A stretch of 55,033 nucleotides of DNA. It comes from an uncultured Actinomycetota bacterium (GTDB taxonomy: Bacteria; Actinomycetota; Nitriliruptoria; Euzebyales; Egibacteraceae). How positions within the stretch are numbered: position 1 is the stretch's first letter; every line of letters begins with the position of its first letter. The notes beneath the pieces are model-generated. The model saw only the letters and a program-made list of their open reading frames with translations, searched no databases and had not been told where the DNA came from. The position numbers and the translations under genes were made by a program. Positions 6,536 through 42,900 of the stretch are shown here, one piece after another. The stretch lies in the NCBI GenBank assembly GCA_964629825.1, contig CAZVUW010000009.1, positions 1 to 55,033 of the forward strand, given 5' to 3'.

Positions 6536-6549
6536 ACAGGGAGGCGCCC

Positions 6550-22491: not shown

Positions 22492-22515
22492 CAGCCCTCC
22501 GGATGCGGAGGGCTG
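22492..22515 (+). promoter_or_regulatory. 10-bp stem / GATG loop hairpin whose 3' arm contains the Shine-Dalgarno of the ABC permease gene
   Basis: CAGCCCTCCG GATG CGGAGGGCTG ends 4 nt before GTG 22520. GGAGGG is the only SD-like element. Confidence 0.45.
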
Positions 22516-22519
22516 CGCG

Positions 22520-23374
22520 GTGACCGCGGCGGAGCACGGCGCTCCGCCGGGTCGGCAGGGGGAGCTCTTCCAGCTGGGCGTGAAGCCGTCCTTGAGGAAC
22601 TATCTCCGCCAGATCTGGTCACGCCGGGATTTCACGATCACCGTGCCCCTGGGTGACCTGCGAGCCCAGCACCGCAACACCTTGCTCGGCAGCATCTGGC
22701 ACCTGTTCAACCCGCTGCTGCTGGGCGCCGTGTACTTCCTCATCTTCGGCGTGATCTTCAACCAGGCCGGGGCGATCGAGAACTACGTCACGTTCCTGCT
22801 CATCGGCCTGTTCATCTTCCAGTTCACGTCGAAGGCCATGAGCACCGGTGCGCGAACGGTCATCTCGAACATGGCTCTCATCCAGAGCCTGACGTTCCCC
22901 AGGGCGGTCCTGCCGATCTCGGCGGTCATCGGGGAGACCCTTGCGTTCCTCCCGTCCGTCGCCGTCATGGCGATCGCCGCGGTCGTGACGGGCGAGCCCG
23001 TCAGCATCACATGGCTGCTCGTCCTGCCCGCCCTAGGGCTCCAGGCCCTGTTCAACCTCGGCATAACGTTCTTCACAGCGCGGATGACGTTCCACTTCCG
23101 CGACACGCTTGAGATCCTGCCCTACATCACCCGCTTGTGGATGTACCTGTCCGGCGTCTTCTACACCGTGGACCGCATTCCCGAGGGCCCGCTGCGGACA
23201 GCCTTTGAGCTGAACCCGCTCCATGCCTACATCTCGATGATCCGCAGCCTCTTCATGGACGCCGCGATCCCGGAACGGCATTGGGCCATCGGGGCGGCGT
23301 GGGCGCTCGGTCTCGCGCTGGCCGGGTTCCTGTTCTTCCGAGCACGTGAAAGCGACTATGGGCGCGGCTACTGA
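22520..23374 (+). CDS. wzm: Polysaccharide/O-antigen/teichoic-acid type ABC-2 exporter permease (Wzm/TagG family)
   Basis: LRNYLRQIWSRRDFTITVPLGDLRAQHRNTLLGSIWHLFNPLL is the characteristic N-terminal region. It has six TM segments and sits directly upstream of the Wzt-type ATPase. Confidence 0.8.
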   Translation: MTAAEHGAPPGRQGELFQLGVKPSLRNYLRQIWSRRDFTITVPLGDLRAQHRNTLLGSIWHLFNPLLLGAVYFLIFGVIFNQAGAIENYVTFLLIGLFIFQFTSKAMSTGARTVISNMALIQSLTFPRAVLPISAVIGETLAFLPSVAVMAIAAVVTGEPVSITWLLVLPALGLQALFNLGITFFTARMTFHFRDTLEILPYITRLWMYLSGVFYTVDRIPEGPLRTAFELNPLHAYISMIRSLFMDAAIPERHWAIGAAWALGLALAGFLFFRARESDYGRGY

Positions 23375-25013
23375 TCACTCCGTGAACGGCGAGCAGACGC
23401 AACCGCCCGTGTCCGAGCCGGTGGCCGTGTCGGAGAACGACGACGCCTTCGACGGGCACGCGCCTTCTGTGGTGATCGACGACGTCCACCTCACCTACCG
23501 GGTCTACGAGGACGTCAAGCCGACGCTGCGCAAGCTCGTCGCCCGAGGGTTCAAGCCGCGTCCCTACCGCGCTATCGAGGCGGTCCGCGGCGTCAGCCTC
23601 ACCGCCTATCCCGGCGATGCCGTCGCAATCGTGGGGGCGAACGGGTCGGGCAAGAGCACGCTGCTGAAGGTCGTCGCCGGGCTGATCCCGCCGACCAAGG
23701 GGGCCGTGTACGCGGGCTCTGTGCCCGTCCTTCTCGGCGTGAACGCCGCGCTTCAGCCCGAGCTCTCGGGCCGCCGCAACATCATCCTCGGCGGTACCGC
23801 TCTGGGGCTGTCGCGCAAAGAGGTGGACCAGCGCATCGATGAGATCATCGAGTTCTCCGAGCTGGGCGACTTCATCGACATGCCGCTGCGGGCGTACTCC
23901 TCTGGCATGAGAGCACGACTGCAGTTCTCCATCGCCACCGCCGTGCATCCGGACGTCCTGCTCATCGACGAGTCGCTGGCGGTGGGCGACGCAGCATTCC
24001 GTCGCAAGTGCGAGATCCGCATCCAAGAGATGCTGGGCGCGGCGGGCACCGTGTTCCTGGTCAGCCACAGCCTCGGAATCGTCAGGGAGCTGTGCTCTCG
24101 GACCGTGTGGATGGACCACGGGGCCGTCTTGGCGGACGGCCCGACGGAGGAGGTGCTCCCCCGCTACGAGGAAGCCATGGGTGTCCCAGCGGAGCGGATC
24201 CGCAAGCCGGGCGCCGCCCCTGCAAAGCGGGAGGAGCCGAAGCCTGCGGCCGAGGGGACGGTGGAGCAGCCCCCTCCGCTGCCCCTGCTCGGCGATCCGG
24301 ACGAGCTGCTGTACGTCGCCACGCCACCACGCGGGGGTGCCGTCCCACTGGCGCGTGCGCTGAACCGCGATCCTGACCTGGCGGTGTTCCGTCTGCCGGG
24401 GCTGGCCAACGACCGCTTCGAGGTTCGCGCCGATGACAAGGAGCGCTGGGACGGCCGCAACGTGGACCTCGTCGGCTTCGCCCGTGAGCACGCAGGTCCC
24501 CGTCTTCTCGCTCGATTCCGCGAGGAGCTGCAGCCCGAGCTGCTGCGCCACGTCCGCCAGGTTGGGGTCGCTGAGAACACCCATGACGGCTGGCGCCGCT
24601 ATCTGCGTCAGTTCCCCAAGCTGCGGGCCGTGATCGTGGCGCGAGATCCCCGAGACGTGTACCTGGAGCTGACCCGCGCGGTTGCCGAGGACCCCCGGTT
24701 GTGGGTGGGGCCTCTCACGGTTCAGTCCTTCGCAAACCGCGCCGTACCGCAGTACCAGCACCTTCAGGAGATCGAGGAGTCGGTTCCGACGCTGCGGGTC
24801 TCCTACGACGAGCTCCTCACCGCGCCGGGCGAGGTCGTTCGCGCGGTGCGTGAGCTGGTGGGCATGCCAGGGCCGGCCCCGGACGGGATCCAGATCGCCG
24901 CCGAAGCTCAGCGCTCATGGCGAGAGGAGACGGACGCGCAGCTCCGTGACGAGCTCGAGATGATCGGGCGCCTGTTCGCTGGAGTCATCGAGGACTGGGG
25001 CTTCGACCAGTGA
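23346..25013 (+). CDS. wzt: Polysaccharide ABC exporter ATP-binding protein (Wzt/TagH family) with ~240-aa C-terminal sulfotransferase-fold-like domain
   Basis: Walker A is GANGSGKST, the signature is YSSGMRARL and Walker B is VLLIDESLAVGD. The C-terminal domain (from ~24297) carries YVATPPRGGAVPL, IVARDPRDVYLE and LRVSYDELLTAPGEVVRAVRELVGMP. The start is uncertain (GTG 23346, ATG 23358 or GTG 23382). Confidence 0.85.
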   Translation: MKATMGAATDHSVNGEQTQPPVSEPVAVSENDDAFDGHAPSVVIDDVHLTYRVYEDVKPTLRKLVARGFKPRPYRAIEAVRGVSLTAYPGDAVAIVGANGSGKSTLLKVVAGLIPPTKGAVYAGSVPVLLGVNAALQPELSGRRNIILGGTALGLSRKEVDQRIDEIIEFSELGDFIDMPLRAYSSGMRARLQFSIATAVHPDVLLIDESLAVGDAAFRRKCEIRIQEMLGAAGTVFLVSHSLGIVRELCSRTVWMDHGAVLADGPTEEVLPRYEEAMGVPAERIRKPGAAPAKREEPKPAAEGTVEQPPPLPLLGDPDELLYVATPPRGGAVPLARALNRDPDLAVFRLPGLANDRFEVRADDKERWDGRNVDLVGFAREHAGPRLLARFREELQPELLRHVRQVGVAENTHDGWRRYLRQFPKLRAVIVARDPRDVYLELTRAVAEDPRLWVGPLTVQSFANRAVPQYQHLQEIEESVPTLRVSYDELLTAPGEVVRAVRELVGMPGPAPDGIQIAAEAQRSWREETDAQLRDELEMIGRLFAGVIEDWGFDQ

Positions 25014-28267: not shown

Positions 28268-28268
28268 C

Positions 28269-29096: not shown

Positions 29097-30202
29097 GCAT
29101 CTCCGCGCCACGCCTGCTGCCAGCGTCCGATCCCGCCATCGTCTGGCGGGCGCCTGAACATCTCAGGATCTGCTGCGTCCTGCCCACGATGAACCCGTAC
29201 GGCGGCGTCATCTCGGTGGTCAACATCGCCGAGCAGTGGCTCGAGCTGGGCCATCAGGTGACGATCGTGTGCCTGTCGCGCGGTCTCCCCGATCTGCTCT
29301 CGTCGCGCATCGAGCCGCTGCACATCCGCGACTGGTCGCGCATCCCTGAGCTGGTCGAGGGCGACTTCGACGTTCTCCTGGCAACCTCATGGGAGACCGT
29401 CGCTCCGGTCACGGAGATGGCCAGGCGGCGCCCCGGCAGCGTGCCGTTCTACTTCGTGCAGGACATCGAGAGCCGCCTCATCCCCGCGTCCGAGCCAGAG
29501 CGGCAGCGTGCGGCAGATGCCACCTATGCGGCCATCGAACACCGCGTGGTCAAGACCGCATACCTTCAGCGCGAGCTGGCCGCGCTGGGGTACGCCGCCG
29601 AGCGGATCACGCCAGGGATGAACCTCGACATGTTCTATCCGCGCGATGTTGCGCCCTCGGCACCGCGGATCCTGGCGATGGCCAGACCCGATGCGCCGCA
29701 GGATCACCGCGGCTACTCGGTGCTGGTAGACGTCTGCGCACGCCTCGCGTCGCGACGCCCTGAGGTGGAGCTGGCGCTCTTCGGCGCACGCGAGCTGCCG
29801 CCCCTGCCGTTCCCGCACACGAACCTCGGACTGGTGCCCCCCGCGAAGCTGCCGGAGCTGTACTCCGCAGCGACCGTCTACCTGGACGTCAGCCGCCAGC
29901 ACGGCTTTGGGCGCACCGGCGTGGAGGCGATGGCCTGCGGGACGCCCTGCGTCCTCTCGGACAGCGGTGGGATCTCGGACTACGCCATGGACGGCGAGAA
30001 CGCCCTGGTCGTGCCCGTCGCCGATGTAGATGCGACGGTGGCTGCGGTCGAGCGGCTGCTCGACGATCCGACGCTCGCCGAGCGGCTGCGCGAACGCGGT
30101 CTCGCCACCGTCCGCTCCTTCACCGACCGCGCCGCCGCCGAGGAGCTGCTGACGCTGTTCGAAGAGGCGCTCCACGCGCAGCGCTCCAGCGCCCAGGCCT
30201 GA
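29093..30202 (+). CDS. Glycosyltransferase family 4 (GT-B)
   Basis: ATGA overlap with the upstream GT2. Motifs seen: ICCVLPTMNPYGGVISV and HGFGRTGVEAMACGTPCVLSDSGGISDY. Confidence 0.8.
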   Translation: MSISAPRLLPASDPAIVWRAPEHLRICCVLPTMNPYGGVISVVNIAEQWLELGHQVTIVCLSRGLPDLLSSRIEPLHIRDWSRIPELVEGDFDVLLATSWETVAPVTEMARRRPGSVPFYFVQDIESRLIPASEPERQRAADATYAAIEHRVVKTAYLQRELAALGYAAERITPGMNLDMFYPRDVAPSAPRILAMARPDAPQDHRGYSVLVDVCARLASRRPEVELALFGARELPPLPFPHTNLGLVPPAKLPELYSAATVYLDVSRQHGFGRTGVEAMACGTPCVLSDSGGISDYAMDGENALVVPVADVDATVAAVERLLDDPTLAERLRERGLATVRSFTDRAAAEELLTLFEEALHAQRSSAQA

Positions 30203-30219
30203 CCTCCGGCCGCCAGGCT

Positions 30220-32292
30220 TCAGGCGCCAGACGGCTTCGCGGCGGCCTCGCGCGCTGCCTGGAGCGCCATGATGTTGGTCCACTCCTCCGACGTGCGCAT
30301 CGCCTTGAACAGGTTGGCGTCGGTGTCGCGGAGGTCGTACGTGGCGCGCTGGTGAAAGTGGTACAGCTTCGACTCCGCGGTGTAGATGATCCGCAGGCCG
30401 GCATGGGACCGCACCGCATCGCAGTAGACGCGGTCGGAGCGATAATGCGGCGCGTTGACGTGATCGAGCGGGCCGCAGAGATCGAGCGCCTTACGTGTCA
30501 CAAGCACGCAGAAGAAGGGCGCGTAGGTCAGCTCAACCCAGCCGCGAGCGACGTCAAAGTTCGGATCGATAACGTTGCGGTGGTGCGCGCTGAGATTGCT
30601 GTCGCACTCCCGGGTCGGATCAGATCCGGGCACGTGCGTCCTGATGGTGGATGTGTCGGGTGGCAGCACCTGGCGCGGCGCCACGATCCCTACGTCATCG
30701 CGCTCCACCGTGACGCGTTGCAGCCCCTCCAGCCAGCCAGGCGTGGCGAGGGCGTCGTTGTTCATGATCACGATGTCATGCTCGGGATGGGCCAGCGCGA
30801 TGCCCTGGTTGACCGCATAGGTGAAGCCGTAGTTGACGTCGTTGCGAACCACCGTGACGCCGTCCTGCCCGTCGAGCTCGTCCAGATGCTCCTGGACCTC
30901 CTCACCGGAGGCGTTGTCGACGATCACGAGGTGCGTGCCCGGAGGTGAGAAGCGCCGAATCGAGGCGGTGCAGGCGCGTAGGAACGGCGCCGCCTCATAG
31001 CTGGGTATGACGATGGTCACCCCAGGGGCGCCGTTCACAGGCTCAGGCTGTCCGGCGTTGCAGAAGGCGATGTCAAGCAGGTCTGCCACATCGGAGCTGG
31101 CGGGGACGTCCGACAGCAGCGGCCCCAGCTCCCTGCCCTCGCGCAAGCGACGCCGGATCAGCTCGAGGTGGACGGCGCGACTCTCCCCGCGCGAGACGTT
31201 GGACGCCGATTCCGACTGGTCATACGTCGACAGGATCACCGGGACGGCGATCGGCGGGGAGGCCGCGCTGAGGCGGAGGAAGAACTCCCAGTCGACGTAG
31301 CGACGCATCCCTTCGTCCAGCAGCCCGACCTCGTCGAGGAGAGAGCGACGATGCAGCACCGAGATCATGGAGATGAAGTTGTTGTTCTCCAGAAGTCCGC
31401 GGTGAAAAGGTGCGAAGCGGATGATGTTCTGACGCTCGCTCTCACCCTCGGCGAGTGGTCTCAGCACCAGCTGCGCGGAGTATCCGAACGAAGCCCCCGC
31501 CCGCTTGAGCTCGCCGAGCAGGATGCGAACGAAGTGCTCGTCCCAGACGTCGTCGCTGTCCAGGTAGCCGACCCAGGCGCCGCGCGCGGCGCGAAGGCCG
31601 GTGTTGCGTGCGTGGGCGTTGCCGCCGTTCTCCCGGCGACGGATATAGGTGACACGCGGGTCATCGATGGCCTTCACCACGGCCTCGGTCCCGTCGAGGC
31701 TCGCGTCGTCGACGACGATGACCTCGATGTTCTCGTACGACTGCGCCAGAGCGGAACGCACAGCCTGCTCGATCACGCCTGCGCGCTCGAAGGTCGGGAT
31801 GATGATCGAGACGAGCTCGTCCTGGGGGAGATCCCTGTGCTCCTGCGCGAGCCGATCCTTGAGGTAGGCCATGTAGGCGAGGATGCGACGATCCTCCTCG
31901 CTGAAGGGTGAGCGGATCAGGTTGGGATCCGTCGTCGCCAGGGCGAGGTACTCCTCGAAGGTCCGGAAGCGGGGCTCCTTGGCCGCCTTGGGCTTAGCGC
32001 GCTTCTTTGGGGTAGGCGCTGGCGGCGAGGGGGTTCCGCTTCCCGAGCCGAGCAGCGGCAGCTGGGCCAGCGGATCATCGGCCGACACGTCCTGCACCCA
32101 GTGCCACTCGAACCCATAGCGGCGGAACAGCCCCGCGTCGGGGACCTCCACACGCCAGCCGCCCACGCACTGGTAGACCCGGCGTCCGCCGTCGATGCGG
32201 ATCAGCACCACCCCGGGAGGCGGCTCCGACGGCTTGGGCTGCTCGGGGGCGGGGGCGGCACCCGACCACCGGGGTCCACGCAGGGAGGGCAT
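30220..32292 (-). CDS. Tandem double GT2 glycosyltransferase with ~110-aa unique N-terminal region
   Basis: ATG 32292 follows AAGGAG. Module 1 carries VSIIIPTFERAGVIEQAV, VIVVDDASLDGT, NGGNAHARNTGL and LDSDD. Module 2 carries VTIVIPSYEAAPFLRAC, LVIVDNASGEE, NYGFTYAVNQG and MNNDA. I trimmed the 812-aa track ORF. Confidence 0.8.
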   Translation of the reverse strand: MPSLRGPRWSGAAPAPEQPKPSEPPPGVVLIRIDGGRRVYQCVGGWRVEVPDAGLFRRYGFEWHWVQDVSADDPLAQLPLLGSGSGTPSPPAPTPKKRAKPKAAKEPRFRTFEEYLALATTDPNLIRSPFSEEDRRILAYMAYLKDRLAQEHRDLPQDELVSIIIPTFERAGVIEQAVRSALAQSYENIEVIVVDDASLDGTEAVVKAIDDPRVTYIRRRENGGNAHARNTGLRAARGAWVGYLDSDDVWDEHFVRILLGELKRAGASFGYSAQLVLRPLAEGESERQNIIRFAPFHRGLLENNNFISMISVLHRRSLLDEVGLLDEGMRRYVDWEFFLRLSAASPPIAVPVILSTYDQSESASNVSRGESRAVHLELIRRRLREGRELGPLLSDVPASSDVADLLDIAFCNAGQPEPVNGAPGVTIVIPSYEAAPFLRACTASIRRFSPPGTHLVIVDNASGEEVQEHLDELDGQDGVTVVRNDVNYGFTYAVNQGIALAHPEHDIVIMNNDALATPGWLEGLQRVTVERDDVGIVAPRQVLPPDTSTIRTHVPGSDPTRECDSNLSAHHRNVIDPNFDVARGWVELTYAPFFCVLVTRKALDLCGPLDHVNAPHYRSDRVYCDAVRSHAGLRIIYTAESKLYHFHQRATYDLRDTDANLFKAMRTSEEWTNIMALQAAREAAAKPSGA

Positions 32293-32386
32293 GTCCAGCT
32301 GAGCTCCTTGGGCCGCGGGACGGCAGGTGGGGGTTCTCGGGCAGCCGGTCGTCAGCGCCGCGCGGTCGCGTCCCGTCGTGGAGGAT

Positions 32387-34546
32387 ATGGTCCTGCACCA
32401 AGATGACCACCGCAAAGTACCCACCGTGTCCGTGAGGCCCGGCGCCGCTGGCCGGGCGGCGCTCGTGGAAGACGAGCGCTCTGCACAGGTCCACATCGTG
32501 ATCCGCTGCGCCGGCCCTGCCTTCTGGACCGAGCGCTGCATCGACTCCGTGATGCGGCACACGGACCTTCCATTCACTGTGACGCTGGTTGCGGACACCG
32601 ACGACTCGTACGTCATCGAGGTGATCGAGAGCTTCGCTGGGATGACCGGCGTGCGCACGGCCTCCGACCCGCAGCGGCTGCGTCAGCTCCTGGAAGGAAG
32701 CGAACCGGGCGCCGCGGTCCATCTGCATGACGACACCGTGGTCGGTCCCGCGTGGGCGTCGACGCTGGTGACCGCCCTTCGACGCCACCCGACAGCGGCG
32801 GCCACGGGTCCGGTGACCAATCACGCCGACGGCCCTCAGGGCTTCGTCGAGCTCGGCAGCTACACGTCAGGCGACTTGGACGCGTATGCGCGTCATTACA
32901 ATTGGTCGGACCCAAGCCGGTGGTTCCACGTCGCGTCCTTGGCTCGGTTCGCGGTCTGCCTCCGGCTGCCGATCGCAGAGCACCTCAGTGGCCTGCTCGA
33001 CAAGCCCTTCTCCCCTGACCCGATCGCCGCCGGTGAAGGCGAGCTCGTCTGTGCAGCGGATGCGTTCGTCTTCCACGCCGGAAGCGAAACCCTGCGCACC
33101 GGTGATGCATGGCGAAGCGCACTGGTCGTGGATGGGATCGCGCACCCGATCCTCACTCCCGCCGCCGAACACCTCGCAGGTCAGCTAGGCGAGGTGGTGG
33201 CCGGCCCGAAAGACCTCCCGACGGGCAGGCCCGTCGCACTTGTACGCGGGCTGTCGACCGGCGTCCATCTGGCGATCGGGGGGGAGCGGCGGCCTCTGGC
33301 CGGCGATCCGACAGCGTTGAGGCGCCTGCGCGGAGTCGTCGTGCTGCCGAACGACGACCTCGCGACACTCCGCCGCGGAGACCTTCTGCACGTCCCGACA
33401 CCGGCGGACGAGGCAGCCGCCGACCAGCAGCGGCTCCCGGTTCGCAACAACCTCGGCGACCGGTGCCTCGGCAGCGACTCGGTGCTCGCGCGAATCACCC
33501 AAGCGCTGAGCGCTCGAGCACCCCTATCACTCGTCCGAGTCGGCCCCGCAGAGGAGCTGCTGCTGAGCCCCGAGGGGGCCCCCAGAGAGGTCACCCCCGA
33601 GCTGCGCTACGCCGGCGTCGCCCATCCAGGTGCCTTGCGCCTCCGGTTGTGCGCCGCGCTTAGAGATGCCGACATCGTCGGGCTTCGCCTTCACCTGAGC
33701 AAGCAGCACGTCGCAATCCTCGAGCGCGTGCTCGAGCACCACAGCCTTCACCCTCGTGCGGTCTGCTCGCACGACGTGCTCTGGCCTCTGGTCCGCCCTG
33801 CAGACGGGCGGTCGGTCCTGACTTCGCCGCTCGTTGAGGCCCTGGCCGGCAGGCGCATCGCCGTTGTAGGCCGGAGAGCTGAGGAGGTGCTGCTGCGTCG
33901 CCAGCGCTTGGGGCTGGATGTGACGACCGCAGTCGACCTCGAGGACGAGACCACCCTGGACGCCGCCAAGGACTTGCTGCTGGAGCGCGCTGCCGCATTC
34001 GATGTCGTCCTTGTCGGCGCCGGCGTTCCAGCCGTGCTGCTATGCCCATGGGCCGCGCGGACCCTCCGGACCGTGGCCATCGACATCGGCCTCATCGCCG
34101 ACCATCTCGCCGACCCGAGCGTCGGTCCCAGCACCGGCGAGCAGCTGCTTCGCCGCTGGCAGCTCGCCCGCTATGCGGCGGACATCGAGGTGCCGTCAAC
34201 GAGGGCGAGGAAGCACCCTAGGAACGGCACGTTCGTCCGAGACCGCAAGGATGGAGCGCTGCACTACGTCGAGTCCGGAGTGCGCCGGCTGGTCACCTCC
34301 CCTGCCCTACCAGCCCTGCTCGGCGCAGTCGTCGAGGAGGTCACGCCCCAGGAGCTCCATGCCCTTCCTTCCGGTCCACCGGTAAGCATCGTCCTGGATG
34401 CAACCCGTGGCGCCGCCATCTTGCTGGACGGGCGGCTCCAGCCGATCGACCTCGGTCTGCCGGTGTCCGCACTGGACCCTGACGTGCTCAGCAGTCTGCC
34501 CGCGGCAGAGGCGGCCCTGCCCTGGCGGCCCGCGGAGGAGGCCTAG
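32387..34546 (+). CDS. Multidomain putative glycosyltransferase: N-terminal GT-A-like region, central GT-D (DUF1792)-like region, C-terminal unknown
   Basis: The N-terminal region carries VHIVIRCAGPAFWTERCIDSV ... TLVADTDD ... HLHDDT. The central part carries PLSLVRVGPAEELLL and VVLVGAGVPAVLLCPWAA, which resemble the GT-D fold signature. The start is uncertain (32327 to 32387). Confidence 0.5.
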   Translation: MVLHQDDHRKVPTVSVRPGAAGRAALVEDERSAQVHIVIRCAGPAFWTERCIDSVMRHTDLPFTVTLVADTDDSYVIEVIESFAGMTGVRTASDPQRLRQLLEGSEPGAAVHLHDDTVVGPAWASTLVTALRRHPTAAATGPVTNHADGPQGFVELGSYTSGDLDAYARHYNWSDPSRWFHVASLARFAVCLRLPIAEHLSGLLDKPFSPDPIAAGEGELVCAADAFVFHAGSETLRTGDAWRSALVVDGIAHPILTPAAEHLAGQLGEVVAGPKDLPTGRPVALVRGLSTGVHLAIGGERRPLAGDPTALRRLRGVVVLPNDDLATLRRGDLLHVPTPADEAAADQQRLPVRNNLGDRCLGSDSVLARITQALSARAPLSLVRVGPAEELLLSPEGAPREVTPELRYAGVAHPGALRLRLCAALRDADIVGLRLHLSKQHVAILERVLEHHSLHPRAVCSHDVLWPLVRPADGRSVLTSPLVEALAGRRIAVVGRRAEEVLLRRQRLGLDVTTAVDLEDETTLDAAKDLLLERAAAFDVVLVGAGVPAVLLCPWAARTLRTVAIDIGLIADHLADPSVGPSTGEQLLRRWQLARYAADIEVPSTRARKHPRNGTFVRDRKDGALHYVESGVRRLVTSPALPALLGAVVEEVTPQELHALPSGPPVSIVLDATRGAAILLDGRLQPIDLGLPVSALDPDVLSSLPAAEAALPWRPAEEA

Positions 34547-35827
34547 TTGCGCCTCTACCTGGTCGCCGGCATGCACCGCAGCGGTACCTCCCTGCTGACC
34601 ATGCTTTTGTCCATCCTGGGCGCGGAGGTCGGACCGGAGGACCGCTTGATCGGAGCGTCCGCCTCCAACCCGACAGGCCACTGGGAGCTGCGCCCGGTCG
34701 TCGAGCTCAACGACCGGATCCTGGCCGCGCTGGGGGGCAGCTGGGACGCGCCACCGCCTCTTCTGGAGGGCTGGCAGCATGACGAACGGCTGCGGGGCCT
34801 GAGGACGCAGGCTCGGCAGATCATCTCAGGGCACCTGTCCGAAGGCTTGAACGTCATCAAGGACCCTCGGCTGAGCATCCTGGCGCCCTTCTGGCAGGAG
34901 CTCGTGCCCGTGCACGGGACCATAGTCATGCTGCGCTCACCAGCAGAGGTCGCGGCCTCGCTGGCTCGGCGCAACGGCCTGGACTCCGAGGCGTCAGCCG
35001 AGCTGTGGCTCCGCTACACCCTGGACGCCATCGCTCTGTGCTCGCACCCGCATGTCCTTTCCTATGAGGATCTCCTCAACGACCGGCGCGAGGAGGCGAT
35101 CTCGCATGTGGTCGAGCTCCTCGACCTGCCCAAGCCCGACGAGGAACAGCTCGCAGCGGTCACCGAGGCCGTCCGAAGAGATCTTCGTCACCATGCCGGC
35201 TCACCTCCGTTGGAGGGCACCGCGGGAAGCGCTTCCGAAGCCCTGTACGAACAGCTGCGACAGCTGGGGGTGGCTGGTGTCGGCGACCTTGGCCCCGCCC
35301 TTCGGCAGCGCTCGCACCTGTTGAGCCAGGCCGCGGCTCTGCGCTCGGCGCTCGACAAGCGCGCGGCCGAGGTGCGGCGCGAGCGCGCCCGCTCAATCGA
35401 CGCCAGCCGTTCCGCGCTGAGCTTCCGTGCTCTCCACCTTGAATCGCAGCGGGACGCCGCACGGCTGCGCCGTGAGGTGCAGCTGCTTCGACAGCAAGCC
35501 ATCCGCGCCAAGCGGAAGCAGGAGACGCTTGAGACGCACATCGGGCATCTCGAGGAGCGCCTGGATGGCCGCGACGTGCAGCTGCAGCGCTTACGTGAGG
35601 AGCTGGAGTCCACCAGGCTCAGGGCCGCACGACACGAGCGTCGCTCCAGCGAGCTAGCCCTGCGGGTTCAAGAGCAGGAGCGGGAGCTGAGCGAGCTCCG
35701 CGCGACGGCCGAGCGCGTGCACGAGCTGGAGGAGGGCTACCGACGCCTGCGCACGCGCAGGTCCGTTCGGCTGCTCCTCGCGCTGAGCGGCGCCTTGAAG
35801 CCGCTGCGCAAGCTCCTGCGCCGCTGA
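34547..35827 (+). CDS. Sulfotransferase fused to a ~150-aa coiled coil and a C-terminal basic amphipathic helix
   Basis: The TTG start lies directly after the upstream stop. The PAPS 5'-phosphosulfate loop is LVAGMHRSGTSLL and the 3'-phosphate motif is VMLRSPAEVAASL. LSYEDLLNDR is also present. Heptad-rich Arg/Glu/Leu sequence spans aa ~255-402, followed by SVRLLLALSGALKPLRKLLRR. Confidence 0.75.
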   Translation: MRLYLVAGMHRSGTSLLTMLLSILGAEVGPEDRLIGASASNPTGHWELRPVVELNDRILAALGGSWDAPPPLLEGWQHDERLRGLRTQARQIISGHLSEGLNVIKDPRLSILAPFWQELVPVHGTIVMLRSPAEVAASLARRNGLDSEASAELWLRYTLDAIALCSHPHVLSYEDLLNDRREEAISHVVELLDLPKPDEEQLAAVTEAVRRDLRHHAGSPPLEGTAGSASEALYEQLRQLGVAGVGDLGPALRQRSHLLSQAAALRSALDKRAAEVRRERARSIDASRSALSFRALHLESQRDAARLRREVQLLRQQAIRAKRKQETLETHIGHLEERLDGRDVQLQRLREELESTRLRAARHERRSSELALRVQEQERELSELRATAERVHELEEGYRRLRTRRSVRLLLALSGALKPLRKLLRR

Positions 35828-35836: not shown

Positions 35837-37945
35837 CTAGCCGCCGTCTACCGAGCGCAGCGGAAGTCTCAGAAGCGGCCGCCGCCCGTCGCGGATGACC
35901 ATGAGCTCCAGACCGCTGGGGCCCTCCCCGACCAGCTCCGGGAGGATGACCGCGTGCACGTCCGCGCGCCCCTCGGCGGATGCGTAGGTCTCGGCGACCG
36001 CCACAACGCGCCCGTTGACGGCCACGGCGACGTGCGACACGGCATCCCCGGCGACGCTGGCCGGCACACGGGCGCGCAACAGCCCCGGGAATGGGTCGCT
36101 GTCGGCGGTCACCGCGTCGTACGCCTCACCGTCTGCGACCGACGCGGTCGCTTCCGCCGGAGCCTCTTCCACGGTGAGCTCGGACACCTCCGCTCCGACC
36201 AGCTCGCTGTGATCCACGATCCGGTCGATCAGCGGCCCGTCGGTGCCGAACAGCTGAGCTCGGTGGCGGGCCTCCTCTAACACCCGGTCCCAGATCTGGT
36301 CAGCGGGCAGCGGCTCGTCGTCCTGTCGGTGGAGCTGGCGCGCAACTCGGGGGGTCTCATCCCGAAGGCTTCGCCCGTCAAGCGCGGGCGCGCCCTCGAC
36401 CTGGAGAACGTCCAGGATGGTCGGCACGACGTCGATCGTCTGCACAGGGTAGGTCTCGACACGGCCCGCGCTCTGCCCCGGGTACTTCACGATCAGCGGG
36501 ATGGCTGCCAACTTGGGCGCCGTCTCGGGCATGGCGTGGCGCACGGGCAGACCCTCGGAGAACGCGAGTCCGTGATCGGCCGTGATGACGAAGAGGGCGT
36601 CGTCATAGAGGCCAACCTCCTTAAGCCGTTCTATGGCGCGACCGACCATGGTGTCCACGTAGCCCACCTGCAGCAGGTGTCGCTGGTAGGCCTGTCGCAC
36701 CAGCCAGCCATTGTCGCCCCAGTACTTGTGGGGAGCTTCGACGCGCCCCGGAGCAGGCCGGTCGTGGGCGTATATGCGCCCATCGGGCAGTCGTCGCCAC
36801 GGGGAGTGGGGCAGGAGCACGTGAAGCACGTGAAGCTGCTCATGCGGTCCATCACCCAACCGATCGATGAACGCCTCCAGCCTCGTCCCCGGATCATCTG
36901 AGGCCTCAGACTCGGCTGGGGCTGGGCTGGTCTCGCCGAAGCCCGCCCATGCGTCGCCCAGCGGCGGCAGACGCTCATCCAGGGCCCCCGGGGTCAGGCG
37001 GTGCGCCAGCACGAGCAGCGAGTCCTTGGCCAGCCTGCCCACGTCCAGCCCGGCGCTGCTTCCACCCTCCGAATCGCATGCGCTGGACGTGCAGAGCTGC
37101 GTAACTGCCTCCTCGGCCGAGATCGCCAGACTGCCTTCGAGAAGGGCGAAGATGTTCTGCGGATGGTCCTCGGCCGTGGGCAGGGCACCCTCGCGAGGCA
37201 TCATGCCGCTGAGGATCGCTGGCACCGACTCGGTCGTGTGCTGGTGCACGGAGGCGGCATCCCGGTACCAGGTGGCCTCCTCGGCGACCATACGTGCGAG
37301 GTTCGGGGCAATTCGCTCGTCTATCACGCCGTCTGGCGTCACGATCGAGCTCACGGGGAACTCGTCGAAGATGAACAGGAAGACGGGGCGAGGGTCGCCG
37401 ACCGCTATCTCGGTGGCTTGGGCTTCCGCAGAGCCCCGAAGCTGGGAGACGGGAGACACCAGCAGGAAGAGCCCGAGTGCCACGAGCGGAACGGCCCAGC
37501 CCCACGGCAGCAGCGTGCGCAGTCCGGCTGATCTGCTCGCCGCGAGGACTAACCCAGGACCGGCGACCAGGCCTCCCGCCAAGGCCACCAGGGTCGGGGC
37601 CCCCACGCCGTCCAGGAGCTGGATCACCACCAGGGCCACAAGCACCCCTGCAACGACCCCGGTCACGATGGCGGCGCTCGTGCGATGGAGCAGCCACAGC
37701 GCCACCAGCCCGAGCGCCACAGCGATCGGTAGCACCACAGCCAGCACCAACCCATAGGCCACGACGTGTGCCCAGCGCGCGCCTTGGGCGATGAAGAACT
37801 CCGGATATCGGCCCAGAAGATCGAGCAGCGGCTGGCTGATCGCGAGCGTGAACAGCGCCGCCGCGGCTCCTCCGACCTGCCAGCTGGTCAGTGGAGGCTG
37901 CACGGTTTCGTCGGCAGCAGCAGGGGGAGCATCGCGATCAACCAT
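35837..37945 (-). CDS. Membrane-anchored alkaline-phosphatase-superfamily (sulfatase/LtaS/EptA-like) transferase
   Basis: The N-terminus has ~5 TM segments. The metal-site motif is PVFLFIFDEFP, the probable Thr nucleophile context is HQHTTESVPAILSG, and VITADHGLAF is also present. There is no C/S-x-P-x-R sulfatase motif. Confidence 0.65.
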   Translation of the reverse strand: MVDRDAPPAAADETVQPPLTSWQVGGAAAALFTLAISQPLLDLLGRYPEFFIAQGARWAHVVAYGLVLAVVLPIAVALGLVALWLLHRTSAAIVTGVVAGVLVALVVIQLLDGVGAPTLVALAGGLVAGPGLVLAASRSAGLRTLLPWGWAVPLVALGLFLLVSPVSQLRGSAEAQATEIAVGDPRPVFLFIFDEFPVSSIVTPDGVIDERIAPNLARMVAEEATWYRDAASVHQHTTESVPAILSGMMPREGALPTAEDHPQNIFALLEGSLAISAEEAVTQLCTSSACDSEGGSSAGLDVGRLAKDSLLVLAHRLTPGALDERLPPLGDAWAGFGETSPAPAESEASDDPGTRLEAFIDRLGDGPHEQLHVLHVLLPHSPWRRLPDGRIYAHDRPAPGRVEAPHKYWGDNGWLVRQAYQRHLLQVGYVDTMVGRAIERLKEVGLYDDALFVITADHGLAFSEGLPVRHAMPETAPKLAAIPLIVKYPGQSAGRVETYPVQTIDVVPTILDVLQVEGAPALDGRSLRDETPRVARQLHRQDDEPLPADQIWDRVLEEARHRAQLFGTDGPLIDRIVDHSELVGAEVSELTVEEAPAEATASVADGEAYDAVTADSDPFPGLLRARVPASVAGDAVSHVAVAVNGRVVAVAETYASAEGRADVHAVILPELVGEGPSGLELMVIRDGRRPLLRLPLRSVDGG

Positions 37946-38247: not shown

Positions 38248-39645
38248 ATGACATCGGGCGTGGCAACCGGCTCCTTTCGCGATCCTGCGAGTCGGGTTCT
38301 CCTGGACGGCACGAGGGTTCTTCGTGTGCTCTCCCGCGAGGGCTACGAGGACTGGCTGGCGCTGAAGGATTCGCGGCTGCTTGCCGCCGCGCAGTCTGCG
38401 GGGACCCTCGTCGCAACCACCGACGCCTCCATCCCTGACGCTGCTCCGCGGGGGGATTGGGTCCACGCGCTCGAGCATGAGGCGATCCCCTTCATCTCGT
38501 ACCCCTACGAGTGGCCCTTCAGCATGCTGAAGGACGCAGCCCTGCTGCAGCTGGATCTCCTGCAGTCCGCCTTGGAGGAGGATCTGATCCTCAAGGACGC
38601 CAGCCCCTACAACGTCCAGTGGCGGGGTGCACGGCCGGTCTTCATCGACATCGGCTCGTTCGAGCGTCTGCGAGCGGGTGAGCCCTGGGCCGGTTACCGC
38701 CAGTTCTGCTCCCTGTTCCTCTTCCCGCTGATGCTGCGCGCGTACAAGGGGGTCCCGTACAGGACCTGGCTCCGCGGTGATCTGGAGGGGATATCGCCGC
38801 AGGAGATGCGCAGCCTCATGAGCCGGCGGGATCTGCTGCGCCCTGGAGTGGCGCTGCACGTGGCTCTGCAGGCCAAGGCCGATGCGCGCTACTCCGCGGG
38901 TGACGAGAACGTCCGCGAGCAGGTCCGCGCGGCGGGCTTCAGCAAGGACCTGATCCTGGCCAACGCGCGGAGGTTGCGGAAGCTCGTCGACTCCCTGAGC
39001 TGGCGCGCCGCGAGCTCGGAGTGGTCCGAGTACGCCACCGGCTGCGCCCACGTCGAGGGCGACCGCAACGTGAAGGAGAGGTTCGTCCGCCAAGTCCTGG
39101 CCACTCGCCGATGGCCGCTGGTCTGGGATCTCGGCGCCAACGACGGCTACTACTCCAGGCTTGCCGCCTCGCACGCAGACGCGGTGCTGGCGATCGATGG
39201 GGATGAGCTGGTGCTCGACCGCCTCTATCGCAGCTTGTCCGGCGAGGCCAAGGATCGGATCACGCCATTGGTGATCGACCTGGCCAACCCCTCGCCCGCG
39301 CAGGGCTGGGCCGGCCGGGAGCGTATGACCCTCGAGCAGCGAGGCCGCCCAGCCCTGACGCTCATGTTGGCGGTCATCCATCACCTTTCGATTGGACGCA
39401 ACATCCCGGTGGCCGACGTCGTGCGCTGGCTCGCCGAGCTCGGCGGTGAGGTGGTGCTGGAGTTTCCGCAGCCGGACGATCCGATGGTGCTCCGCCTGCG
39501 TCGCAACAAGCGCGACGAGGAGATCCATCCCGACTACAGCGAGCGTGCCCTGCGCGGTCTCCTCGCTGAGCACTTCGACATCCAGGCCGAGGAACGAACC
39601 TCTTCCGGCCACCGCCTGCTGCTGCACCTCACGCCGCGCTCCTGA
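38248..39645 (+). CDS. Fusion of an N-terminal protein-kinase-like fold domain and a C-terminal class I SAM-dependent methyltransferase
   Basis: The N-terminal part carries YPYEWPFSMLKDAALLQLDLL, LKDASPYNV (D-x4-N catalytic-loop-like) and VFIDIGSFE (DFG-like). The C-terminal part carries LVWDLGANDGYYS (SAM motif I, FkbM-like) and AIDGD. Confidence 0.65.
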   Translation: MTSGVATGSFRDPASRVLLDGTRVLRVLSREGYEDWLALKDSRLLAAAQSAGTLVATTDASIPDAAPRGDWVHALEHEAIPFISYPYEWPFSMLKDAALLQLDLLQSALEEDLILKDASPYNVQWRGARPVFIDIGSFERLRAGEPWAGYRQFCSLFLFPLMLRAYKGVPYRTWLRGDLEGISPQEMRSLMSRRDLLRPGVALHVALQAKADARYSAGDENVREQVRAAGFSKDLILANARRLRKLVDSLSWRAASSEWSEYATGCAHVEGDRNVKERFVRQVLATRRWPLVWDLGANDGYYSRLAASHADAVLAIDGDELVLDRLYRSLSGEAKDRITPLVIDLANPSPAQGWAGRERMTLEQRGRPALTLMLAVIHHLSIGRNIPVADVVRWLAELGGEVVLEFPQPDDPMVLRLRRNKRDEEIHPDYSERALRGLLAEHFDIQAEERTSSGHRLLLHLTPRS

Positions 39646-39742: not shown

Positions 39743-39915
39743 CCGTCCAAGCGTCGAACCGTCCTCAAAACGACCAGGCGGTCTTGAAGGGGCACCCCGA
39801 CCGTGTAGGTTGCGCGTGCTCGCCTACGCGGAGGCGGGCTGCAGTAGCGGGCTGTAAGGACGGCGGGGGACGACAGACGGGCCTCGCCCTTGCACGGAGG
39901 CTCAAGTTGCCCAGG

Positions 39916-42900
39916 ATGGTCGCGCGCAGCACCCGTTCCCTGTCCCTGCTCCTCAGCCTACTCATGGTGAGCGTGCTGGTCGACCCGAGCCTGGCGGCGA
40001 CGGGGGAACGGGGGCGGACCTACACCACCGACGCGGACTTCGACGAAGGCTCGTCCGTCAACGTCGTCACCAGCGTCCCCGATCAGCTCCAGCTCGACGA
40101 CGAGGTGCGGGCGTTCGACTTCCTGTGGGTCGCGGTCTCGACCAAGGGCACGATCGTCAAGATCGACACCCGCACAGGCGAGGTGCTCGGCGAGTACCGC
40201 ACCGCCCCGCAGGGGCAGCCGACGGACCCGTCGCGCACGACCGTGGACAAGAACGGCAGCGTCTGGGCGACCAACCGGGCGGGCAACAGCGTCGTGCACG
40301 TGGGGCTGGTCGAGAACGGCCAGTGCGTCGACCGCAACGGCAACGGCGTCATCGACACCTCCACGGGTCTGGGCGACGTGCGCGCCTGGGACAACGCCGG
40401 CGGGGCGAACACGAACGGGGGCGTCTCGACCGCGCTGGACGAGTGCCTCCTCCACTACGTCCGGGTCTCCTCGTCAGGCACCCGGCACGTGTCTGTCACC
40501 GCCGACAACGACGTCTGGGTCAGCGGCACGGGCGGACGCCACTTTGATCTGATCGACGGCGCCAGCGGGGAGATCGTCCGCCGCGAGCAGTCGGTCGGCT
40601 ATGGCGGCTACGGCGGGCTCATCGACCCGAGCGGGGTCATCTGGTCGTCTCGGCCGCTGCTGCGCTGGGACACGGCCAACCCGCTGACCGGTCCCAACGG
40701 CGGGAACTGGCGCGGCTACTCGCATGACAGCTATGGCCTGTGCATCGACCCCGAGGGCAACGTCTGGAACACCGAGTACGGCAGCCGCATCCACAAGTTC
40801 GCGCCCGACGGCACGCTGATCGGCACCTACAACCACGGCGGCTCGCTGGCTCAGGGCTGCGTGGCCGACCGCGACGGCCACATCTGGGTCGCCCACTCCC
40901 TCAGCGGCAACACGGTCGGCCACCTGCGCAACGACGGCACCCACCTGGGCAACGTGACCGTCGGCAGCGGGCCGACCGGCGTCGCCGTCGACGGTGCCGG
41001 CAAGATCTGGGCCACGAACTACAGCAGCCGCACCGTCTCCCGGATCGACCCGGACGCCGGCCCGATCGGCACGGACGGCCAGACCCGGGTCGGCGCCGTC
41101 GACTTCACCAGCGTCGACCTGGGCGGCAACCTCTACAACTACAGCGACATGACCGGCAGCACGCTGGCCGGCGCGCCCGACACCGGCACCTGGTCGGTCG
41201 TCTACGACAGCGGTGTGGACGCGGCGCAGTGGGGCCGTGTCGCCTGGACCGCCCAGGTCCCGGGCGACGGATCGCTGACGGTGACCGCGGCCAGCAGCGA
41301 GAACGGCAGCACCTTCTCCGCGCCGGTCGACGCCACCAGCGGCGGCCTCATCGACGTGCCCGACGGGCGCTACCTGCGCGTCACCGTGTCCTTCAAGCGC
41401 TCCAGCGACGGCGACAGCCCGGTCCTCAACGACCTGACCGTCCGCACCGGCACGGCCCCGCTCGAGTGCGAGACCCAGCCGGGCGGCATCGCACCCTCCG
41501 ACGTCGCCTTCGTGCTCGACGAGTCCGGCTCGATGTCCTCGAACGACCCGCAGCGCATCCGCGTCAGCGCCAGCACGGCCTTCGTCGACCGCTTCGTGGA
41601 GGGCGACCGCGCCGCCGTCATCGGCTTCGAGTCCAGCGCACGGGTCATCCTCGGCCTGTCCTCGGACGTCGACGCGATCAAGGCGGCCCTCAACCAGACC
41701 CGCGCATCCGGCGGCACCGACATCTCCAGCGGCGTCCGCGCGGGCCTGGACGAGCTCGCCAAGGATGCCCAGCCGGGCCGCCCCCAGTTCCTGCTGCTCC
41801 TGTCCGACGGCGCCGGCAGCTACAGCCACACCCTGACCGACCGCGCCGCCGCCGAGGGCGTGACCATCTACACCGTCGGCCTGGGCCCGTCCGTGCCCGA
41901 GGCGCTGCTCACGGAGATCGCCGAGCGCACCGGCGGCCGCTACTTCCCGGCGGCCCGGGCCGACGAGCTGCCGGACCTGTTCCAGGAGATCCGGGACGAG
42001 ACGGAGATCATCCTGTGCGGCGGCCCGACCGCCGAGGCCGGCGGGCCCTACGCGGTGCCGGAGGGCGGCGCCGTGATCCTCTTCGGCTCGGCCGACCCGG
42101 GCGACGACACGCGCCCGCTGACCTTCGCCTGGGATCTCGACAGCGACGGCGACTTCGAGACCGACGGCCCGCTCGCCCGCTTCGACGCGACCGACCTCGA
42201 CGGACCCGCCGAGGTCGAGGTCGCGCTCCAGGTCTGCGACGCCGACGAGCTCTGCGACGTCGACACCGCCACGGTCGAGGTTCGCAACGTGCGGCCCGAG
42301 GTCGATGCCGGACCCGATCTCGTCGTCACGGTGGGCGACACCGCGCTGCTCGACGGGCGCTTCAGCGACCCTGCCGGGGACGACGACGCCCCCTACGAGA
42401 CGATCTGGACCCTCGACGGCGAGGAGACCGCCGGCACCGCCGACCACGGCGACCCCGTCCGCCGCAGCGTCTCCTTCGACAGCCCGCAGAGCCATCTGGC
42501 CGAGGTGACGGTCACCGACGCCGACGGGGCGACCGGCCGCGACACCGCGCGGGTGAGCGCCGTGGCCATCGATCCGGACTGCTCCGGTGCCGGACCGACC
42601 ATCGCGCAGCTGTGGCCACCGAACCACAAGCTCCACAACGTTGCGATCACCGGCGTCGAGGCGCCGGACGGTGCGGACGTCGCCATCGTCATCACCGGCA
42701 TCCGCCAGGACGAGCCCGTCAACAGCACCGGCGACGGGAACACCGCGCCGGACGCCTTCGGCGTGGGCACCTCGACCGCCAGCCTGCGCGCCGAGCGCGC
42801 CGGTCCGCAGGACAGCCGCTTCTATCACATCTTCTACGAGGCCCGGACGTCCGAGGGCGGCATGTGCGCCGGCTCGGTCAGCGTGATGGTGCCGCACGAC

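Follow-up and report, generated by a model that had tools for sequence, protein, structure and literature searches.

The protein encoded by ORF 34547-35827 joins an N-terminal sulfotransferase fold to a heptad coiled coil and a basic C-terminal tail, and its gene lies in a Wzm/Wzt glycan cluster within the 55,033-nucleotide stretch of DNA analyzed here (the window). We favor, at a probability of roughly 0.55, a reading in which this protein is a PAPS-dependent glycan sulfotransferase that both terminates the chains and gauges their length in a cell-wall glycopolymer pathway dependent on an ABC transporter. This reading draws on comparative data, namely family coiled coils of variable length, neighboring wzt genes that encode Wzt_C, fusions to glycosyltransferase (GT) modules and a PAPS synthase beside a close relative. 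Sulfation at the non-reducing terminus, the ruler function and membrane anchoring are inferred, and a cap-reading role for part of the window's Wzt is speculative.

The gene is present as the preliminary description had it, on the + strand with a product of 426 aa. Codon-position GC of 0.76/0.47/0.83 is coding-like, and gene callers make the identical call on 9 contigs, of which the five listed come from five different sequencing runs. A strong Shine-Dalgarno sequence, GGAGGAGG, lies 5 nt 5' of TTG 34547 and backs that codon as the start. The TAG of the upstream GT-D gene abuts the same TTG, and both genes share a frame. Given the strong Shine-Dalgarno sequence and the abutment of stop and start, the two genes appear from their sequence to be translationally coupled. 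The features of the gene and its product are as follows.

34534..34549, + strand: Shine-Dalgarno GGAGGAGG (34534-34541), TAG stop (34544-34546) and TTG start (34547-34549)
34547..35827, + strand: sulfotransferase-coiled coil-tail gene, 426 aa, TTG start, TGA stop
34547..35281, + strand: predicted sulfotransferase-fold catalytic domain, aa 1-~245 (homologues, alignments, AF2, Foldseek)
34568-34591, + strand: 5'-PSB loop GMHRSGTS, aa 8-15
34934-34960, + strand: 3'-PB R130...S138 (R130-x7-S138, MLRSPAEVAAS)
35282..35761, + strand: coiled-coil rod, aa ~246-405 (AF2 helices, heptad register, Pro-free run)
35762..35824, + strand: basic C-terminal tail SVRLLLALSGALKPLRKLLRR, aa 406-426

Judged by alignment and structure prediction, the N-terminal domain is a sulfotransferase fold in which the conserved residues of the family are intact. 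Intact PAPS-binding motifs had been claimed for this region, and the family alignments bear the claim out. The columns of GMHRSGTS are invariant in a 25-sequence alignment and near-invariant in an 81-sequence alignment, and R130 and S138 occupy invariant or near-invariant columns in both. Conserved E47 (in GHWE) and KDPR (aa 105-108) also lie within the domain, and the 3'-PB region of the AF2 model consists of a strand (124-129) followed by a helix (132-143). The protein retains all family invariants and has lost one of 29 family-conserved positions, which is typical, as the median among relatives is also 1. The possibility of a non-sulfotransferase fold, raised at the outset, is countered by the AF2 model (mean pLDDT 88.9, above 90 for the N-terminal domain), for which the Foldseek matches in the PDB ranked 1-17 and 19-20 are without exception sulfotransferases (TPST1/2, Stf9, StaL, Teg12, Stf1). 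The best of these, TPST1/2, are matched at E = 7e-6 to 7e-4 and 15-19% identity.

Many homologues at 35-45% identity carry PF13469/PF00685, and hhalign against a bona fide PF13469 family returns a probability of 95.9%. Searches of Pfam and NCBIfam with the target itself yielded only generic coiled-coil noise (SMC, TMF) and a sub-threshold match to Sulfotransfer_3 (PF13469; E = 0.11, 13.2 bits vs a cut-off of 27), which is nevertheless full length (target aa 6-195 on a profile of 216 positions). A PDB sequence search gave coiled-coil noise only. Because Pfam alone gives no call, the sulfotransferase assignment rests on homologues and fold.

The rod that follows is, from its periodicity and its predicted structure, a real heptad coiled coil. 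The preliminary description had pointed to a heptad-rich segment of ~150 aa at 35309-35752 (aa 255-402), and both the periodicity and the AF2 helices (246-339 and 346-425) agree with it. Residues 256-405 form a Pro-free run, and the heptad register is unbroken over about aa 288-399, passing through the predicted helix break. Maxima in the hydrophobicity spectrum fall at exactly 3.5 and 7.0 residues (z = 3.1-3.7, p = 0.008-0.016, 5000 shuffles), and LIVMFA residues fill 69% of a/d positions vs 17% of other positions. The AF2 model interrupts the rod at aa 340-345 (pLDDT 66), so that it could alternatively fold back into an antiparallel hairpin about half as long. The tail, SVRLLLALSGALKPLRKLLRR, had been put forward as a basic amphipathic helix. 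Its basic character stands, with a net charge of +6, whereas its amphipathicity is borderline (hydrophobic moment 0.53-0.61, p = 0.056 vs shuffles). A C-terminal 'S-W-R-x-T-x-P-L-R + basic' tail occurs in 17/109 relatives, and by eye SVRLLLALSGALKPLRKLLRR looks like a variant of it.

The genetic setting places this protein among the genes of a glycan export pathway. The cluster has at least eight glycosyltransferase genes, spread over 20276-34546, and its GC is below that of the flanks. Of 13 proteins examined from the cluster and its surroundings, the product of ORF 34547-35827 alone has a long coiled coil. The following genes of the cluster concern us here.

22520..23374, + strand: Wzm-like ABC-2 permease
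23358..25013, + strand: Wzt-like ATPase, 551 aa
25010-28267, + strand: GT2+WsaF_C
28269-29096, + strand: GT2
29093-30202, + strand: GT4
30220-32658, - strand: 2xGT2
32327-34546, + strand: GT-D-like, directly upstream of the sulfotransferase gene

A GC content of 71.6% and the actinobacterial named relatives of the Wzt ATPase domain indicate that the host is probably a Gram-positive actinobacterium, and the product would thus be a cell-wall glycopolymer and not an O antigen. Of the O-antigen-type, ABC-dependent setting proposed earlier, the Wzm/Wzt and glycosyltransferase cluster is borne out and the O antigen is not. A CWB2 cell-wall-binding protein is encoded near the cluster. No genes for PAPS synthesis or sulfate uptake occur within the 55-kb window, a point against the favored reading. 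The adjacent 'Sulfatase'-domain gene (35837-37945, - strand) was considered as a matching sulfatase and rejected; its product is multi-TM at the N-terminus, shows a nucleophile motif of the Thr type, HTTESVPAILSG, carries no C/S-x-P-x-R motif and, from its sequence, looks LtaS/EptA-like. The unannotated parts of neighboring proteins were also considered as sources of rival terminator domains and yielded nothing beyond a weak SAM-methyltransferase-like signal (E = 0.044) in a 465-aa protein (38248-39645) that has no coiled coil.

Sequence comparison indicates that the sulfotransferase-coiled coil architecture is shared by a large family and is not unique to the window. The family is widespread and phylogenetically broad, with at least 589 genomic loci. 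A coiled coil of at least 60 aa is present in 51/109 relatives, reaching 386 aa among these and 616 aa among the genomic loci, so that its length is very variable. In seven unrelated genomes (L010, L011, L054, L077, L018, L015, L067) a Wzt_C-encoding (PF14524) wzt precedes the gene at a distance of 3-841 bp, the gap being 3-7 bp in five of the seven. Four of these proteins (L011, L054, L077, L067; hosts Lysobacterales, Dyella and a gammaproteobacterial MAG) continue from sulfotransferase through coiled coil into C-terminal GT4 and/or GT2 modules. With Wzt_C-encoding wzt genes in seven genomes and GT4/GT2 fusions in four, the relatives exhibit hallmarks of capped-glycan systems, which are marked by an extended coiled coil, a terminator at its distal end and a CBM on Wzt (PMC11231755). 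The closest full-architecture homologue (P0003, locus L095) is encoded beside an ATP-sulfurylase/APS-kinase gene, that is, a PAPS synthase, together with a Na/sulfate-symporter-like gene and a second sulfotransferase. PAPS-pathway motifs also occur near relatives in L032, L057, L071 and L043.

The same comparison bears on a reading in which the enzyme decorates the glycan, sulfating internal residues or a linkage unit, while the coiled coil provides only oligomerization or a scaffold at a membrane-bound assembly complex and has no part in termination or length. A sulfotransferase fold with intact motifs would suit such an enzyme, and the second sulfotransferase in L095 suggests multi-site sulfation. 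In addition, 58/109 relatives have no long coiled coil and, with a Wzt-type NBD within 10 kb in 22/80 relative loci, the other 58/80 have no Wzt that close. Across those 80 loci, possession of a coiled coil tends to go with a nearby Wzt, though the trend does not reach significance (odds ratio 2.0-3.2, Fisher p = 0.11-0.22), and the window Wzt carries no canonical cap-reading module. Against decoration, coiled-coil fusions of highly variable length are a published terminator hallmark (PMC11231755), and the gene follows a Wzt_C-encoding wzt in the seven genomes above, with the sulfotransferase fused distal to polymerase-type GT modules in four of them. An enzyme acting all along the chain would have little use for such an arrangement. 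We regard decoration as possible though unlikely, and prefer the sulfating terminator and ruler.

A second sulfotransferase fold is found on the transporter itself. The window Wzt consists of an NBD (about aa 37-273, counted from ATG 23358), a Pro/Ala/Glu linker and a C-terminal domain (about 24303-25010); Pfam finds no Wzt_C (PF14524) in it. The C-terminal domain is modeled by AF2 at pLDDT 94.2 and has 96 matches in the PDB at E <= 1e-3, of which 50/50 listed are of sulfotransferase fold. Of 26 family-conserved positions this domain has lost nine, the range in 39 free-standing homologues being 0-4. Among the lost positions are the PSB-loop Ser, an invariant Glu, an invariant Lys and the 3'-PB Ser (now Glu), and about 20 residues are deleted as well. 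Homologues of the extension were recovered only by exhaustive HMMER search, as a word-indexed search gave nothing; longer matches (P0182, P0190, P0191, P0203) were considered as ABC fusions and rejected, as they are not. The closest sequences to its NBD (56-69% identity) belong to short TagH-like ATPases lacking any extension, a type that serves systems which read no cap; this and the missing Wzt_C count against the favored reading. In L091, which represents an independent lineage, Wzt is joined to a sulfotransferase domain that appears intact (PF13469, 120 bits; motifs GRSGTT, GEKTP and RDPRDAAAS), and a paralogous sulfotransferase with a short coiled coil and a basic tail is present too. This pairing in L091 suggests more than one recruitment of enzyme-derived domains to glycan ABC transporters.

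The fusion in L091 also lends itself to a reading in which sulfation takes place at the transporter, with the Wzt-fused domain as the enzyme at export and the coiled-coil protein in another or an accessory role, such as a structural or regulatory one. In the window, the nine lost positions and the deletion in the Wzt-fused domain argue against this, as does the full set of invariants kept by the coiled-coil protein, and we hold it to be improbable. Least probable is a non-glycan acceptor (protein tyrosine, a lipid or a small molecule) with an incidental location in a glycan cluster. In its favor are the Foldseek preference for TPST1/2 and the lack of a specific functional assignment from Pfam or NCBIfam; against it are the general tendency of Sulfotransfer_3-type domains to match TPST first, which the unrelated Wzt C-terminal domain shares, a gene neighborhood wholly concerned with glycans, the apparent coupling of the target gene to a glycosyltransferase gene and relatives that lie within GT/Wzm/Wzt clusters or are GT-fused.

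Returning to the sulfating terminator, the closest parallels are WbdD and WbbB. WbdD of E. coli O9a and K. pneumoniae O3, a terminator of the kinase and methyltransferase type, combines a coiled-coil ruler with a membrane helix at its C-terminus. Like WbdD, the target places an N-terminal capping-type domain before an extended coiled coil and then a C-terminal region, here basic and of borderline amphipathicity, and it is encoded with Wzm/Wzt and polymerizing glycosyltransferases (PMC11231755, PMC3482155). Unlike WbdD, it has a sulfotransferase fold in place of the kinase/methyltransferase, so that PAPS would be the donor and sulfate the cap; its host is probably Gram-positive, and its partner Wzt lacks Wzt_C. 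WbbB of K. pneumoniae O12 holds a GT99 beta-Kdo terminator, a coiled coil and two polymerase GT modules in one polypeptide. The GT-fused relatives in L011, L054, L077 and L067 match this layout, with the sulfotransferase in the terminator position and the gene directly after a Wzt_C-encoding wzt. In the window, by contrast, the polymerase modules are separate genes, and the predicted terminator chemistry is sulfation, not Kdo transfer. Homology to the catalytic modules of WbdD and WbbB (kinase/SAM-methyltransferase, GT99) was sought in Pfam, NCBIfam, a PDB sequence search and Foldseek, with no match. The target is thus an analogue of WbdD and WbbB and not a homologue; the WbdD-like architecture of the preliminary description holds for the order of parts (domain, coiled coil, basic tail) and not for descent.

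The target also resembles the Sulfotransfer_3/Stf carbohydrate sulfotransferases (mycobacterial Stf0, Stf1 and Stf9) in its fold and in its 5'-PSB and 3'-PB motifs, and it is predicted to share their cytoplasmic, PAPS-dependent reaction on glycoconjugate precursors. To our knowledge, no sulfotransferase of the Stf0/Stf1/Stf9 type has a coiled-coil ruler or a linkage to Wzm/Wzt. No link between a sulfotransferase and chain termination was found in searches of the open-access full-text literature. Counting against the favored reading, wzt and wbbB of Aeromonas salmonicida flank an ORF with a sulfotransferase domain, yet its O antigen has no detected sulfate (PMC4483657).

In the mechanism we propose, the basic C-terminal tail would tether the protein to the membrane or to the polymerase complex, and a parallel coiled coil of about 110-150 residues, which would measure roughly 16-22 nm without a break, would space the sulfotransferase domain from the membrane. 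By analogy to WbdD and WbbB, only sufficiently long lipid-linked chains would reach that domain. Sulfation of the non-reducing terminal sugar would then stop glycosyl transfer and flag the chain as finished, and Wzm/Wzt would export the capped chain. The degenerate sulfotransferase-fold domain on Wzt may stand in for Wzt_C and recognize the sulfated end. Wzt_C reads the glycan cap, and the window extension likewise sits C-terminal to the NBD after a linker; unlike the Wzt_C beta-sandwich it has a sulfotransferase fold, and the cap-reading role is a speculative proposal. The complete system, in which the coiled-coil sulfotransferase writes a terminal sulfate and a catalytically dead Wzt-fused counterpart, having replaced the canonical beta-sandwich module, reads the sulfated end and gates export, is a tentative extension that we consider rather unlikely when taken as a whole.

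The experimentally established terminators surveyed for ABC-transporter-dependent glycans install methyl, phosphomethyl or Kdo caps, and almost all act on Gram-negative O antigens. If the favored reading is true, a sulfate cap added by a coiled-coil sulfotransferase would be a new termination chemistry, would carry the ruler paradigm over to the cell-wall polymers of actinobacteria and would supply a testable function for the family. With a terminal sulfate, the surface polymer would bear one strong negative charge at its outermost tip. This charge could matter for the binding of phage, antibodies or cell-wall proteins, and the CWB2 protein is encoded nearby. Should the Wzt-fused pseudo-sulfotransferase prove to be a reader, it would represent a substrate-recognition module of a class new to glycan exporters and a tool for engineering length-defined, end-sulfated polysaccharides.

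The 426-aa protein with a sulfotransferase domain, coiled coil and basic tail is encoded by an ORF at 34547..35827 (+) of the window, where its codon-position GC of 0.76/0.47/0.83 is typical for real genes and overall GC is 71.6%. The TTG start of this ORF is credible because a Shine-Dalgarno sequence (GGAGGAGG, 34534-34541) lies 5 nt before it, because the TAG stop of the GT-D-like gene (32327-34546) immediately precedes it with both genes in-frame, and because the resulting N-terminus, M-RLYLVAGMHRSGTS, agrees with that of the closest homologue, MKIVCLTGMHRSGTS. A strong Shine-Dalgarno sequence with only the TAG between the genes (34534-34549) indicates probable translational coupling, and read-through of the TAG would yield a fusion protein of 1166 aa. 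Nine contigs yield a call for exactly this protein, and each of the five places listed belongs to a different sequencing run. The gene sits in a glycan cluster with a GC of 0.67-0.70, versus 0.72-0.77 in the flanks.

Genes of the glycan cluster, by position in the window
20276-22297, minus strand, GT2 and GT4
22520-23374, plus strand, Wzm (ABC-2 permease)
23358-25013, plus strand, Wzt
25010-28267, plus strand, GT2 and WsaF_C
28269-29096, plus strand, GT2
29093-30202, plus strand, GT4
30220-32658, minus strand, two GT2
32327-34546, plus strand, GT-D-like
34547-35827, plus strand, the sulfotransferase-coiled coil protein
35837-37945, minus strand, convergent membrane protein, alkaline-phosphatase superfamily

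Upstream of the cluster lie more glycosyltransferases and one nucleotidyltransferase. The nucleotide-binding domain of Wzt is TagH/Wzt-like, and its few relatives with a source name are all actinobacterial (Euzebyales, Jatrophihabitans, Streptomyces, Janibacter), for which reason the product is most likely a Gram-positive cell-wall glycopolymer and not an O antigen.

In the N-terminal domain, both PAPS motifs quoted in the preliminary description fall on alignment columns that are invariant or nearly so (G8-S15, R130, S138), and E47, K105, D106, P107, R108 and W154 do likewise. Pfam Sulfotransfer_3 matches the protein alone below threshold (E = 0.11, 13 bits), with the match covering the whole profile. 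The sulfotransferase assignment is nonetheless settled by three results. Among 120 listed of the 200 relatives at E <= 1e-3 (26-45% identity over the domain), many carry PF13469 and some PF00685; an AlphaFold2 model built from 81 sequences has a mean pLDDT of 88.9, exceeding 90 throughout the N-terminal domain; and the top Foldseek matches in the PDB are sulfotransferases only (TPST1/2, Stf9, StaL, Teg12, Stf1). In a leave-one-out count over family-conserved columns, 1 of 29 positions is lost, which equals the median of the relatives, so the domain looks catalytically competent.

The proposed coiled coil is borne out. Residues 256-405 contain zero proline, the model places helices at 246-339 and 346-425, and the best heptad register is unchanged from about residue 288 to 399, also over the predicted break at 340-345. 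The hydrophobicity power spectrum of the rod has maxima at exactly 3.5 and 7.0 residues (z = 3.1-3.7, p = 0.008-0.016, 5000 shuffles), and LIVMFA residues occupy 69% of a/d positions versus 17% of the others. With a rise of 0.148 nm per residue, 110-150 residues of uninterrupted parallel coiled coil would span a calculated ~16-22 nm; as the model is of a monomer, the rod may instead be a hairpin of half that length. Of the 13 proteins checked in and around the cluster, this one alone has a long coiled coil. The tail, described earlier as a basic amphipathic helix, is indeed basic (net charge +6 over the final 21 residues), while its amphipathicity is borderline (hydrophobic moment 0.53-0.61, p = 0.056 versus shuffles). 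An ending of the form S-W-R-x-T-x-P-L-R plus basic residues occurs in 17 of 109 relatives, and by inspection this tail is similar.

The predicted architecture is not unique to the window. Among 109 relatives that were fetched and contain the PSB motif, 51 bear a coiled-coil-like extension of >= 60 aa, the longest being 386 aa, and coiled coils reach 616 aa in genomic loci. A scan with one genome per species gave at least 589 family loci in many phyla; identity is 43-46% at best, and a close orthologue is therefore lacking. A Wzt-type nucleotide-binding domain lies within 10 kb in 22 of the 80 loci fetched. Most telling are seven loci, in bacteria not related to one another, where the sulfotransferase gene follows a wzt encoding the classical cap-binding module Wzt_C (PF14524).

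Loci with a Wzt_C-bearing wzt
L010, Pelagicoccus mobilis
L011 and L054, Lysobacterales
L077, Dyella jejuensis
L018, Nitrospirota
L015 and L067

The gap between the two genes is 3-7 bp in five of the seven, 477 bp in L067 and 841 bp in L015. In L011, L054, L077 and L067, the coiled coil is followed by GT4 and/or GT2 modules in single polypeptides of 938-1275 aa (~9.5-13.3 kb within each locus), a layout akin to that of K. pneumoniae O12 WbbB with the sulfotransferase in the terminator position. The closest relative with the full architecture, P0003 (locus L095, 453-3207, GCA_041609515.1), shares its cluster with a bifunctional ATP-sulfurylase/APS-kinase (PAPS synthase), glycosyltransferases, another sulfotransferase and a gene resembling Na/sulfate symporters. 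PAPS-pathway motifs also adjoin relatives in L032, L057, L071 and L043.

The window Wzt (551 aa from ATG 23358) lacks a Wzt_C module and ends in a Pro/Ala/Glu-rich linker and a domain of ~235 aa. A search of this domain against 1.84 billion representatives returned 100 relatives at E <= 1e-3, nearly all of them stand-alone proteins 250-280 aa long; Sulfotransfer_3 was confirmed for the ten best, and no ABC fusions were found among the longer matches. Its AlphaFold2 model has a pLDDT of 94.2, and of 96 PDB matches at E <= 1e-3 in Foldseek, all 50 listed are sulfotransferase-fold. The fusion is real, since 11 contigs, assembled from several sequencing runs, give the identical 551-aa product. Of 26 positions conserved in its family, the domain has lost 9, versus 0-4 (median 1) in 39 free-standing homologues. 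The losses, numbered on the 555-aa GTG-start ORF (4 lower in the ATG-23358 protein), include an S332A replacement in the PSB loop with an adjacent Thr to Val change, E350L and K409A (both invariant in 39/39 homologues), S441E in the 3'-PB motif and C491L, and ~20 residues are deleted. A pseudo-enzyme, at the place where other Wzt proteins carry a cap reader, is the likeliest reading; binding of a sulfated chain end by this domain is speculative.

A single further fusion of Wzt with a sulfotransferase domain was found, P0318, encoded with Wzm in an independent lineage (locus L091, 5901-9938, JGI metagenome 3300031965). Its sulfotransferase domain belongs to a different subfamily and appears intact. 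A divergently transcribed paralogous sulfotransferase adjoins it (30% identity, E = 3e-26), with a coiled coil of ~60 aa and a basic tail, RRFVRIGRRLL. With both side by side in L091, the pairing of a Wzt-borne sulfotransferase-fold domain with a coiled-coil sulfotransferase recurs independently. Unusual C-terminal extensions also occur on further actinobacterial TagH/Wzt ATPases, namely a CWB2 cell-wall-binding domain in P0337 (Janibacter sp. Soil728) and ~350 aa without a Pfam family in each of P0339 and P0326; exporter C-termini across Actinomycetota look diverse and largely undescribed.

Several neighbours surround the cluster. The convergent 702-aa membrane protein (35837-37945, minus strand) has a multi-TM N-terminus and matches Pfam Sulfatase. 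A true sulfatase was rejected, and the protein looks like an LtaS/EptA/OpgB-type phosphotransferase, given that N-terminus, a Thr-type nucleophile motif (HTTESVPAILSG) and no C/S-x-P-x-R. A 465-aa protein (38248-39645, plus strand) has neither a Pfam family nor a coiled coil. Its PDB match, a putative SAM-dependent methyltransferase, is weak (E = 0.044), and its sequence contains VWDLGANDGYYS, an FkbM-like motif; the cluster may thus have in this protein another modifying enzyme. Directly after the cluster, a giant 3573-aa protein (39784-50505, plus strand) with a VWA domain, eight Big_9/cadherin-like domains, 16 RHS repeats and a teneurin-like YD shell looks like a polymorphic toxin or surface adhesin. 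Near the cluster, a protein with three CWB2 domains (51603-53768, minus strand) could have the polymer, possibly anionic or sulfated, as its wall ligand. A second, unrelated ABC-2 system (5713-8354) comprises a DrrA-like ATPase (5986-7569) and a permease (7566-8354), with a TetR-family regulator ORF on the opposite strand (5713-7320); the two long ORFs overlap as listed, so their true starts give shorter genes.

We put the probability at roughly 55% that the protein terminates the polymer, whereby sulfation of the non-reducing end would stop growth, the rod would act as a ruler, the tail would anchor the enzyme to the membrane or a complex, and Wzm/Wzt would export the finished chain. This reading is weakened because no PAPS-synthesis genes were found in the window, the window Wzt has no canonical cap reader, the nearest relatives of its nucleotide-binding domain are short TagH-like proteins, and the association between coiled coils and Wzt proximity is a non-significant trend. 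The main rival, to which we give about half that weight, is a sulfotransferase decorating the chain internally, with the coiled coil as a scaffold only. Sulfation by the Wzt-fused domain, which keeps the fold with a third of its conserved positions lost, is improbable, and a non-glycan acceptor for an enzyme encoded amid glycosyltransferases is more improbable still.

The likeness to WbdD and WbbB, proposed earlier, holds for the way of working; sequence and fold comparisons indicate homology to neither. Capped glycans are marked by an extended coiled coil with a distal terminator and a cap-binding module on Wzt (PMC11231755). What has been published comes closest in Aeromonas salmonicida, where an ORF with a sulfotransferase domain lies unexplained between wzt and wbbB and the O antigen showed no sulfate (PMC4483657). 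A Wzt bearing a degenerate sulfotransferase-fold domain was not found described, and none of the open-access full texts searched links a sulfotransferase to chain termination. Mann, Kimber and Whitfield reportedly "predicted new chemistries" in their 2019 census, and sulfotransferase terminators may have been predicted in silico there. Coiled-coil terminators are a known class in which sulfate chemistry is uncharacterised. Given the Wzt_C linkage, the WbbB-like fusions, the PAPS-gene neighbours and the range of coiled coils, the best reading of the family is that of a PAPS-dependent glycan sulfotransferase that would serve as a coiled-coil terminator.
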